Shown: in pieces, positions 1,464 to 45,754 of the stretch
Position numbering within the stretch: position 1 is the stretch's first letter
How the letters are laid out: each line of letters starts with the position of its first letter
From: Escherichia coli
Lineage (GTDB): Bacteria > Pseudomonadota > Gammaproteobacteria > Enterobacterales > Enterobacteriaceae
Length of the DNA stretch: 64,000 nucleotides
Strand: one strand, 5' to 3'
Assembly (NCBI RefSeq): GCF_048403405.1
Contig: NZ_CP183129.1
Notes under the pieces: model-generated
What the model saw: the letters and a program-made list of their open reading frames with translations, nothing else
Told to the model about the DNA's origin: nothing
The model's database searches: none
Translations under genes and position numbers: made by a program

Positions 1464-2489
<1,026 letters not shown>

Positions 2490-8427: not shown

Positions 8428-9141
8428 ATGAAGATTTTTTTGGAGAATCTTTATCATTCTGATTGCTATTTCCTGCCGATAAGAGATAACCAGCAAGACC
8501 TTGTCGGCGTTGAGTTAATTACCCATTTCTCCAGTGAAGATGGTACGGTTCGTATCCCGACGAGTCGGGTTATAGCGCAACTTACCGCGGAGCAACATTG
8601 GCAATTATTTTCAGAGCAGTTGGAATTACTAAAATCATGCCAACACTTTTTTATTCAACATAAACTCTTTGCCTGGCTTAATTTAACGCCACAAGTGGCT
8701 ACATTATTATTAGACAGGGATAATTACGCGGGCGAACTATTAAAATATCCGTTTATTGAACTGTTGATTAATGAGAATTACCCGCATCTCGATGAAGGAA
8801 AAGATAATCGCGATCTTTTGTCCTTATCGCAAATGTATCCCCTTGTGTTAGGTAATTTGGGCGCAGGCAATAGCACAATGAAAGCGGTTTTTGATGGTCT
8901 TTTCACCCGCGTCATGCTGGATAAAAGTTTTATTCAGCAACAAATCACGCATCGCTCCTTCGAACCGTTTATTCGTGCGATCCAGGCGCAAATTTCCCCA
9001 TGTTGCAATTGCATCATCGCGGGGGGCATTGATACGCCAGAAATAATGGCACAGATTACCCCCTTTGATTTCCATGCTCTCCAGGGATGCCTGTGGCCTG
9101 CCGTTCCTGTAAATCAGATAACGACGTTGGTTCAGCGATAA
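8428..9141 (+). CDS. ydiV: EAL-like anti-FlhD4C2 factor YdiV
   Basis: 237 aa beginning MKIFLENLYHSDCYFLPIRDNQQDLVGVELITHFSSEDG; AT-rich gene at the position expected between nlpC and selO. Confidence 0.88.
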   Translation: MKIFLENLYHSDCYFLPIRDNQQDLVGVELITHFSSEDGTVRIPTSRVIAQLTAEQHWQLFSEQLELLKSCQHFFIQHKLFAWLNLTPQVATLLLDRDNYAGELLKYPFIELLINENYPHLDEGKDNRDLLSLSQMYPLVLGNLGAGNSTMKAVFDGLFTRVMLDKSFIQQQITHRSFEPFIRAIQAQISPCCNCIIAGGIDTPEIMAQITPFDFHALQGCLWPAVPVNQITTLVQR

Positions 9142-10835: not shown

Positions 10836-10966
10836 AAAAATTAATAATAATTGATATAACAATGATTCTTATTATCAATATTCTGGCGAACCAGAGCAAG
10901 CAGTAATTTGTTGAGAAGACAACAAGTTGCGCAGAAATGCCCATTCCGTCAGGAATGGGCACGCAT

Positions 10967-21145: not shown

Positions 21146-22057
21146 ATGTATCAACGCTGTTTTGATAACGCCAGCGAAACGCTGTTTGTTGCCGGTAAAA
21201 CGCCACGGCTTTCACGTTTTGCATTTAGCGATGATCCAAAATGGGAGTCCGGACATCACGTTCATGACAATGAAACCGAGTTGATTTACGTCAAGAAAGG
21301 GGTAGCAAGGTTTACCATCGATTCTTCGTTATATGTCGCGCACGCCGATGACATTGTGGTGATAGAACGTGGCAGGCTGCATGCGGTGGCCTCTGACGTT
21401 AACGATCCGGCAACGACGTGTACCTGTGCGCTGTACGGCTTTCAGTTTCAGGGGGCTGAGGAAAATCAGCTACTGCAACCGCATTCTTGCCCGGTAATTG
21501 CCGCAGGGCCGGGAAAAGAAGTCATTAAAACCTTATTTAATGAGCTAAGTGTGATTTTGCCGCAAAGTAAAAATAGCCAAACATCTTCGTTATGGGACGC
21601 CTTTGCCTATACGTTAGCAATTCTTTACTATGAAAACTTTAAAAATGCTTATCGTTCGGAGCAGGGATATATTAAAAAAGATGTTCTGATAAAAGATATT
21701 CTTTTCTATCTGAATAATAACTATCGCGAAAAAATCACTTTAGAGCAGTTATCGAAAAAGTTTCGTGCCAGCGTCAGTTATATTTGCCATGAATTTACCA
21801 AAGAGTATCGTATTTCCCCTATTAACTATGTTATTCAACGGCGTATGACGGAAGCGAAATGGTCACTCACTAATACTGAATTATCACAGGCAGAGATCTC
21901 CTGGCGTGTGGGTTATGAAAATGTCGATCACTTTGCCAAACTGTTTTTGCGCCATGTCGGCTGTTCGCCCAGCGATTACCGCAGGCAATTTAAAAACTGT
22001 TTTGCGGAACAAGAAATCTTATCTGAATTTCCTCAACCGGTAAGTCTTGCCGGATAA
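21146..22057 (+). CDS. ydiP: AraC-family transcriptional regulator
   Basis: 303 aa; C-terminal AraC-type HTH region; divergent from ydiQ. Confidence 0.88.
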   Translation: MYQRCFDNASETLFVAGKTPRLSRFAFSDDPKWESGHHVHDNETELIYVKKGVARFTIDSSLYVAHADDIVVIERGRLHAVASDVNDPATTCTCALYGFQFQGAEENQLLQPHSCPVIAAGPGKEVIKTLFNELSVILPQSKNSQTSSLWDAFAYTLAILYYENFKNAYRSEQGYIKKDVLIKDILFYLNNNYREKITLEQLSKKFRASVSYICHEFTKEYRISPINYVIQRRMTEAKWSLTNTELSQAEISWRVGYENVDHFAKLFLRHVGCSPSDYRRQFKNCFAEQEILSEFPQPVSLAG

Positions 22058-34816: not shown

Positions 34817-35223
34817 TATGGAAACGAAAAATCACCCTGGAAGCACTGAATGCCATGGGTGAAGGAAACATGGTGGGGTTGCTGGATATTCGCTTTGAAC
34901 ATATTGGTGATGACACCCTTGAAGCGACAATGCCAGTAGACTCGCGGACAAAGCAGCCTTTCGGGTTGCTGCATGGAGGGGCATCCGTGGTACTGGCCGA
35001 AAGTATCGGTTCCGTTGCCGGTTATTTATGTACTGAAGGTGAGCAAAAAGTGGTTGGCCTGGAAATCAATGCTAACCACGTCCGCTCGGCACGAGAAGGG
35101 CGGGTGCGCGGCGTATGTAAACCGTTGCATCTCGGTTCGCGTCACCAGGTCTGGCAGATTGAAATCTTCGATGAGAAAGGGCGTTTGTGCTGTTCGTCAC
35201 GATTGACGACCGCCATTTTGTGA
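34813..35223 (+). CDS. menI: 1,4-dihydroxy-2-naphthoyl-CoA hydrolase (hotdog-fold thioesterase)
   Basis: 136 aa, MIWKRKITLEALNAMGEGNMVGLLDIRFEHIGDD...; its ATG overlaps the ydiJ stop (ATGA). Confidence 0.9.
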   Translation: MIWKRKITLEALNAMGEGNMVGLLDIRFEHIGDDTLEATMPVDSRTKQPFGLLHGGASVVLAESIGSVAGYLCTEGEQKVVGLEINANHVRSAREGRVRGVCKPLHLGSRHQVWQIEIFDEKGRLCCSSRLTTAIL

Positions 35224-35322
35224 CGTTGTCACCAGAAAAGTGTGACGCATATTGCTTTTGGTCATTATCTGCACAGTAAACGGTGGTATACTGTGCAGGT
35301 CTTGTCTAAAAGCGAGGATGCT

Positions 35323-35511
35323 ATGTCTACTCAACTTGATCCCACCCAGCTGGCCATTGAATTTTTACGCCGTGACCAGAGCAATCTTTCACCTGCCCAA
35401 TATCTCAAACGTCTGAAACAACTAGAACTTGAATTTGCTGACCTGCTTACTCTCTCTTCTGCTGAATTAAAAGAAGAAATCTACTTTGCCTGGCGTCTGG
35501 GCGTGCATTGA
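35323..35511 (+). CDS. ydiH: Small uncharacterized protein YdiH
   Basis: 62 aa from the internal ATG (MSTQLDPTQLAIEFLRRDQSNLSPAQYLKRLKQLELEFADLLTLSSAELKEEIYFAWRLGVH) with GAGGA upstream; the track ORF is an over-extension. Confidence 0.8.
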   Translation: MSTQLDPTQLAIEFLRRDQSNLSPAQYLKRLKQLELEFADLLTLSSAELKEEIYFAWRLGVH

Positions 35512-35703
35512 TTCTGACTTAATGCCGCAATTTCGCCAAATCGACCTGGATTAACCTCCGTCCAGGTTCGATAACCTTCTTAATACTGCTTATCTACCCG
35601 CCTGATATTGTTCAAAAATAATACTAATCGCAGTTTGTGTTAAAACGGCGGGTTAGCTTTATGAGATTATTCTTATCGCCCCTTCAAGAGCTAAGCCACT
35701 GAG

Positions 35704-35772
35704 AGTGCCGGAGATAAGCGCCGGATGGGGTAGAAACCCTTAAGCCTGTGTCGCACAGACTTAAGGGTTTTC
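35704..35772 (+). ncRNA. rydB: Probable small RNA RydB (boundaries approximate)
   Basis: A strong intrinsic terminator on the plus strand (CCCTTAAGCCTGTG-TCG-CACAGACTTAAGGG followed by TTTTCTTATTT) sits about 230 nt after ydiH, too far to be the ydiH terminator, at the place where K-12 has rydB between ydiH and sufA; the 5' end is a guess from the known ~68 nt length. Confidence 0.4.
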
Positions 35773-35864
35773 TTATTTCTGAACGCTGCACTTTTTTACC
35801 TATCTCTTAAATAGTCATTTTCAATACAACTTTTTCTTTTTCATCACGGCCTTAATGCTCCTTA

Positions 35865-35880
35865 GATAATAATCATTATC
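35865..35880. promoter_or_regulatory. Fur-box-like sequence, distal, upstream of the suf operon
   Basis: GATAATAATCATTATC is a near-perfect match to the Fur consensus GATAATGATAATCATTATC; about 195 bp upstream of the sufA ATG. Confidence 0.5.
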
Positions 35881-35997
35881 TAACAATGAGATACCTAATT
35901 CTTAGCGTGCCTGTTAACCCACACATCAGGGTCTATGCTTATTAAAAGCAGGAAAAAAGCATGTTTTACGGTAAAGCCCCTGCGTTTGCTGGGTTGA

Positions 35998-36016
35998 ACT
36001 GATAATCATTATCACT
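35998..36016 (+). promoter_or_regulatory. Fur box at the sufA promoter
   Basis: CTGATAATCATTATCACTA lies just upstream of a TGTTATACG -10-like element, about 45 to 60 bp before the sufA ATG; the suf operon is known to be Fur-repressed. Confidence 0.65.
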
Positions 36017-36059
36017 AACATGCTGTTATACGCTGAAAGCGATGAAGTGAGGTAAATCG

Positions 36060-36428
36060 ATGGACATGCATTCAGGAACCTTTAATCCACAGGATTTCGC
36101 CTGGCAGGGCTTAACGCTGACACCCGCAGCCGCTGTCCACATCCGCGAGCTGGTGGCAAAGCAGCCGGGTATGGTCGGCGTGCGCTTAGGCGTGAAGCAA
36201 ACGGGCTGCGCGGGCTTTGGCTATGTGCTCGACAGTGTTAGCGAGCCGGACAAAGACGATCTGCTGTTTGAACACGACGGCGCGAAGCTGTTTGTCCCGC
36301 TGCAAGCGATGCCGTTTATTGATGGCACGGAAGTCGATTTCGTTCGTGAAGGACTTAATCAGATATTCAAATTTCACAACCCTAAAGCCCAGAATGAATG
36401 TGGCTGTGGCGAAAGCTTTGGGGTATAG
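36060..36428 (+). CDS. sufA: Fe-S cluster A-type carrier protein
   Basis: 122 aa, [37 protein letters not shown]..., with the C-terminal CGCGESF motif. Confidence 0.95.
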
Positions 36429-45514: not shown

Positions 45515-45754
45515 CCATTCAGGATGAGGCGATAAGCTTCATCCTGATATTCTTGCTTCAGTTGCGGTCCAGTTAATCATTCTAAATAACAACTGCTGAA
45601 ATTATACGAATTTCGGTATGTATTTTAATTTATAGCGATAATGTTATTTTTATTTTCTGCAATGAACGTCACAAATAATTGTCGCTTAAGTTAAATTTAT
45701 TTCAAATGATAATAAATATCAGTTCACTTATAATTTCTTGCTTTGTAATTTTAA

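Follow-up and report, generated by a model that had tools for sequence, protein, structure and literature searches.

The window, by which we mean the whole stretch of 64,000 nucleotides analysed, comes from an Escherichia coli genome (contig NZ_CP183129.1) and carries the genes ydiJ-menI-ydiH-rydB-sufABCDSE in this order; from ydiJ to sufB, all are on the plus strand, as judged from the open reading frames and the K-12 annotation. The ATG of sufA is at position 36060. The ydiH-sufA spacer is nearly identical to its K-12 counterpart and has no insertions or deletions relative to it, and hence position x of the window corresponds to 1764386 + (36060 - x) in the K-12 genome NC_000913.3. We found the 571 bases around the spacer in 5421 of the 5426 complete E. 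coli genomes. The comparative analysis covered 80 sufA loci of Enterobacteriaceae.

The anatomy of this spacer, i.e. RydB with its terminator followed by the OxyR, IHF, IscR and Fur region of sufA, is already known. Our analysis is a check of a known locus, and it confirmed RydB, the terminator and a single conserved Fur operator of sufA. The first-pass annotation had noted two Fur-box-like sites and a terminator in this interval, and all three are present in the sequence where they were claimed to be.

RydB and its terminator

The core of RydB occupies 35678..35738 on the plus strand, between ydiH and sufA, and adjoins ydiH, which is on the same strand. It matches the Rfam family RF00118 (aliases tpe7 and IS082) with 81.6 bits and E = 3.6e-19, well over the gathering score of 50, at the same position and on the same strand as the known RNA. 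Our homology search of the 80 sufA loci detected RydB in Escherichia, Citrobacter, Salmonella, Leclercia and Silvania, among others, and the outer stem of the core has compensatory changes from CG to UA.

A putative extended -10 promoter of RydB is found at 35662..35670 on the plus strand, with TG at 35662-63 and the hexamer GATTAT at 35665-70. Across 26 RydB-bearing loci of several genera, the TG and the positions 2 (A) and 6 (T) of the hexamer never change, in contrast to the bases between them. In the pattern TG-n-GAnnAT it is the diagnostic positions of an extended -10 that are constant, with variable bases right next to them. This conservation would place the transcription start of RydB at about 35675-35678, where the Rfam model begins.

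We also observed a marbox-like 20-mer, ATCGCAGTTTGTGTTAAAAC, at 35627..35646, with its end 18 bp before the -10 of RydB. Two blocks within it, GCA and TGTTAAA, are conserved in different genera. The 20-mer fits the marbox consensus, but the consensus matches in the window are not above chance (11 observed versus 18.6 expected), and we keep it as a lead only. RydB has been reported to be SoxR-dependent after paraquat (PMC2064960).

The intrinsic terminator spans 35733..35778 on the plus strand. Its GC-containing hairpin (35733..35771) consists of 12+5 pairs flanking one C.A mismatch, and the T-tract TTTTCTTATTT comes directly after it at 35768..35778. The hairpin has a folding energy of -21.4 kcal/mol with z = -5.5, and none of 200 shuffled sequences is as stable. 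Among 24 sequences the pairing is kept through two-sided changes at 11 of 16 stem pairs. A simple terminator scanner called nothing in 35200..36300, which we attribute to the C.A mismatch splitting the stem. We consider this "no terminator" result a false negative, overruled by the folding and the covariation. With a hairpin and a T-tract lying directly 3' of the Rfam match and a structure conserved among relatives, the earlier suggestion of a plus-strand terminator consistent with RydB is well founded.

Similarity extends through the hairpin in most of the RydB-bearing loci. At four loci, one of them that of C. koseri, the same place is taken by a hairpin whose sequence is unrelated. In Salmonella and several Citrobacter, RydB and the hairpin are found together though they lie 0.8-2.3 kb from sufA. 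The comparison indicates that the RydB core and the hairpin are inherited as one unit across genera, independently of sufA.

Both the Rfam model and the K-12 annotation of rydB, which is equivalent to 35666..35733 (68 nt), stop at the foot of the hairpin, whereas the comparative evidence favours a terminated RNA of ~100 nt. From the extended -10 and the hairpin we predict a primary transcript of this length, covering ~35676..35776. The prediction agrees with the Salmonella rydB annotation of 105 nt (PMC2515195) and with PMC12306157, where rydB is listed as having a rho-independent terminator. In K-12, the extent given for RydB in the database (68 nt) probably leaves out the terminator. A RydB species of ~60 nt has been reported, which might be processed from a precursor of ~100 nt. 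The RydB gene would consist of its own extended -10 promoter, a conserved structured core and an end at the strong terminator at ~35774-35778. The terminator may also insulate the sufA control region from upstream transcription.

The distance between the two units differs among the genera. In Escherichia and in C. amalonaticus or C. sedlakii the terminator of RydB is adjacent to the sufA OxyR site; Salmonella and several Citrobacter (loci L016, L017, L019, L020 and L025) have 0.4-2 kb of extra DNA between the two.

The sufA promoter and its known operators

The core promoter of sufA lies at 35994..36028 on the plus strand. We read its hexamers from the sequence as TTGAAC (-35, 35994-99) and TAACAT (-10, 36016-21). 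Table S6 of PMC10219339 lists the Fur site of sufA as AACTGATAATCATTATCACTA and gives its centre as -53 relative to the start codon and -21 relative to the start site. This puts the start site at A36028, 32 nt upstream of the ATG.

The proximal Fur operator TGATAATCATTATCA at 36000..36014 (-28..-14 relative to the start site) overlaps the core promoter and fills the spacer between -35 and -10. It matches all 14 specified positions of the 7-1-7 Fur motif and 15-16 of the 19 positions of the 19-bp consensus, and scores 20.0 bits on the weight matrix described below. Of the 80 loci, 79 have a Fur-box match ~60 bp (49-63) ahead of the start of sufA. The proximal operator is also the sufA Fur site listed in PMC2189734 (Table 4) and PMC10219339 (Table S6). 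The promoter-proximal Fur box reported by the first-pass annotation is real, as judged from its perfect 7-1-7 match and its conservation in nearly all of the loci.

Two minor observations concern this part of the spacer. In Intestinirhabdus alba (L057) the only perfect Fur box is at about -158, counted from the matched start of sufA, and thereby ~100 bp upstream of its place at all other loci; an insertion could explain this, as could a different start codon. In the window, an 11-nt inverted repeat, AAAAGCATGTT at 35955..35965 and AACATGCTGTT at 36017..36027, brackets the sufA core promoter together with the IscR site and the Fur box.

The coordinates of three elements at sufA, ORE-I, ORE-II and ORE-III, reportedly come from Lee et al. 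2004. We take the intervals -236..-197, -156..-127 and -56..-35 to be 35792..35831, 35872..35901 and 35972..35993, respectively. The three blocks of the spacer that are conserved best fall on these intervals, which supports the coordinates. The OxyR site ORE-I (35792..35831) holds the block CTATnnnnnAAATAGnCATT..ATACA, conserved across genera, with a diversity of 0.028 within Escherichia, and the IscR site ORE-III (35972..35993) holds the conserved block GCCCCTGC...GGGTTG, with a diversity of 0.039. The sufA region of K-12 is the same in these respects, having its Fur box centred at -21 and its conserved blocks exactly on the three ORE intervals.

In the published architecture ORE-I is the element of OxyR, ORE-II that of IHF, and ORE-III that of both IscR and Fur (PMC8300815; PMC7229158). 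The sufA control region thus has OxyR far upstream, an IHF site whose bend brings OxyR to the promoter, IscR at -56..-35 and one Fur operator between -35 and -10.

The distal box

The second Fur-box-like sequence, GATAATAATCATTATC, is at 35865..35880 (-163..-148), i.e. 195..180 bp upstream of the sufA ATG. It is present as the first-pass annotation stated, which had described a second near-consensus site ~195 bp upstream of sufA and had remarked that it would not place the known Fur operator there. The latter remark holds: the listed sufA site is centred 53 bp before the ATG (-53).

When matches to the consensus are simply counted, the distal box has 12 of 14 positions of the 7-1-7 motif and 14 of 19 positions of the 19-mer. 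One 12-mer, ATAATCATTATC, is identical in the two boxes, which are 133 bp apart. A search with the 19-mer consensus allowing at most 3 mismatches returned the proximal site only, and we therefore turned to the 7-1-7 motif and from there to a weight matrix. The matrix was built from 18 ChIP-supported sites of PMC10219339 (Table S6) with sufA left out. On this matrix the distal box scores 10.8 bits with the T allele of the window and 9.1 bits with the C allele of K-12. When the training sites are scored by leave-one-out, 17 of the 18 fall between 13.2 and 24.0 bits, and the distal box is below this range.

The matrix recovers the published Fur clusters of ydhY (-255; 45704..45724, 20.8 bits) and ydiE (10854..10880, 19.6/15.7 bits), whose coordinates match Table 4 of Chen et al. 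2007 (PMC2189734), so it behaves sensibly. Further matches are at 8439..8459 (15.2 bits), 1901..1921 (14.1 bits) and 21637..21657 (13.1 bits). The significance of the distal match depends on the model. When the 208-bp region is dinucleotide-shuffled, the consensus count is reached by chance with P ~0.003, versus P = 0.056 for shuffles of this region reaching 10.8 bits on the matrix.

Compared with the classical Fur boxes of iron-uptake promoters (fhuA, fepA, cirA, entC and others), the distal box has the same ATAATCATTATC core. It has neither their flanking G and C nor their outer AT(T) positions, which contribute to the score of genuine sites, and it is 150 bp upstream of the start site, while the classical boxes sit over the promoter.

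Among the 80 Enterobacteriaceae loci the distal box is present only in Escherichia, where 4 of its 16 columns are variable and the mean pairwise difference is 0.095. The diversity within Escherichia is 0.017-0.039 for the known operators and 0.074 for the unassigned downstream DNA. These values suggest that the distal box evolves about as fast as neutral spacer. Each Escherichia lineage has its own, different weakening change in the box; the orthologues in E. albertii and E. whittamii score 5.9 and 4.9 bits on the matrix, respectively.

Position 35873, a core position of the left half-site, is T/C polymorphic, and K-12 has the weaker C. Among the 5426 complete E. coli genomes, 2118 have the T allele and 3262 the C allele as exact 45-mers (~39% versus ~60%). 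The T allele appears to be ancestral in Escherichia, which suggests that a near-perfect box once existed.

The distal box as a probable arm of the IHF site

Our analysis suggests that the distal box belongs to the IHF site next to it. The predicted IHF core TAACAATGAGATA is at 35881..35893 on the plus strand, inside ORE-II (35872..35901, -156..-127) and 119 bp upstream of the start of the Fur box, and directly abuts the distal box. The E. coli core is degenerate, matching 7 of the 9 specified positions of WATCAANNNNTTR, and its diversity is 0.022. Scanning the upstream regions we found WATCAANNNNTTR in 69 of 81, of which 45 are perfect and 24 have one mismatch within the scanned stretch. In most of the relatives the core is exactly 119 bp upstream of the start of the Fur box.

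The stretch 35860..35880, which contains the distal box, is 76% A+T and lies 5' of the IHF core, where an AT-rich tract is expected. An IHF site generally takes up ~30-35 bp, of which an AT-rich 5' arm is part. Of the two halves of the distal box, the right one, CATTAT, is kept beside the IHF core in all the Enterobacteriaceae genera examined, and the left one, GATAATA, is found in Escherichia only. The right half is thus a conserved IHF flank with an Escherichia-only left half attached to it, and we therefore consider the distal box most likely the AT-rich 5' arm of the IHF site known at ORE-II.

IHF binding at ORE-II itself is stated in PMC8300815; we infer that the occupancy extends over the arm that contains the distal box. 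The likeness of the box to a Fur box would be largely incidental. We also considered the distal box as a duplicate of the proximal operator. This was not adopted, as the two boxes have no more than the 12-mer in common and CATTAT in the distal one is ancestrally part of the IHF flank. Taken as a whole, the interval consists of two adjacent known units, the RydB gene and the sufA control region, and the distal box is probably an arm of the IHF site of the latter.

Could Fur bind at the distal box?

The distal box could also be a genuine second Fur operator of low affinity, where iron-loaded Fur displaces IHF and blocks the OxyR-dependent activation loop. Such an operator would add a lock against activation to the promoter-occluding proximal site, and would be stronger in strains with the T allele than in K-12. 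We consider this unlikely. Its appeal comes from the 12/14 and 14/19 matches, which are improbable by chance under consensus counting and make the box as good as many functional Fur boxes on that count, and from the repetition of the exact 12-mer of the proximal operator. The box directly adjoins the IHF core, and an overlapping weak site of 4.8 bits is 3 bp away. A 3-bp spacing has been reported for overlapping Fur sites in clusters (Chen et al., PMC2189734).

Against these points, its 10.8 bits are fewer than those of 17 of the 18 ChIP-supported sites and about half of those of the proximal box. The conservation of the box ends with Escherichia, where every lineage has degraded it in another way, and its diversity is at the level of the spacer. 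At -163..-148 it does not overlap the sufA core promoter, and E. coli Fur sites cluster tightly on core promoters (Chen et al., PMC2189734). It is absent from the 42 strong clusters of the same study, in which the Fur sites predicted from the consensus only at exbD and ygaC failed to bind. The ChIP-seq study has one Fur peak at sufA, with 2.83-fold enrichment (PMC10219339). Its Table S6, which gives the best-scoring site per gene only, and Table 4 of PMC2189734 each have one site or cluster for sufA. Our literature search for a second Fur operator at sufA found none.

The proposal of the first-pass annotation that the distal site may be an additional Fur operator is therefore not supported by our data, given that the site has about half the bits of the proximal one, is specific to Escherichia, is polymorphic in its core, is conserved like spacer and abuts an IHF core, inside the expected reach of an IHF site. 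Fur may possibly bind the distal box with low affinity, more strongly in T-allele strains.

A more elaborate version, which we regard as a long shot, combines the two functions: the 5' arm of the IHF site evolved in Escherichia into a low-affinity Fur operator, so that Fur and IHF compete and Fur vetoes the activation by OxyR, tuned by T or C at 35873. If this is true, the 35873 polymorphism would be a natural regulatory variant in the stress control of Fe-S cluster assembly, tuning the veto between lineages.

Other readings of the distal box

The distal box might have no protein-binding role at all, being neutral AT-rich spacer, with IHF contacting only its core and the DNA 3' of the core. 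The diversity of the box (0.095) indeed resembles that of the unassigned downstream DNA (0.074), and 5.6% of the shuffles reach its matrix score. This reading seems improbable to us in view of the right half CATTAT, conserved beside the IHF core across genera, and of the established extent of IHF sites, which takes in the AT-rich 5' arm.

The first-pass annotation had offered another promoter as the second possible role of the distal site. A candidate predicted in silico, ATCACG-16-GATAAT, is at 35843..35870 on the plus strand, with its -10 at the left end of the distal box. The distal box would then mark an upstream sufA promoter, ATCAC(A/G)-16-GATAAT, that starts near 35877, gives a long leader and is repressed by Fur. 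This is the least probable of the readings, and we give it little weight. In K-12 a SELEX peak of RpoD holoenzyme is found in the sufA/rydB spacer, and ATCACA-16-GATAAT was assigned to it (Shimada et al., PMC3946193); yet the assignment is in silico, within a broad peak that also covers the known sufA promoter, and the single sufA start site in Table S6 of PMC10219339 is 32 nt upstream of the ATG. The -35 of the window, ATCACG, matches 3 of 6 positions and is weaker than ATCACA of K-12, and our promoter scan of the window called nothing at 35843..35870. Critical bases of the -10 are altered in E. albertii (GATAAG) and E. whittamii (GGTAAT), and the other genera have no such element. The idea of another promoter is thus weakly supported, by the in-silico assignment only, and is weakened further by the changed -10 in relatives and the weaker -35 in this strain.

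Returning to the distal box as an arm of the IHF site, we note that the sufA region of this strain differs from that of K-12 by a G instead of A at 35848 and a T instead of C at 35873, the latter raising the matrix score of the box from 9.1 to 10.8 bits. As the polymorphism at 35873 is common, results obtained on sufA in K-12 might not transfer exactly to other strains, if the box has any function.
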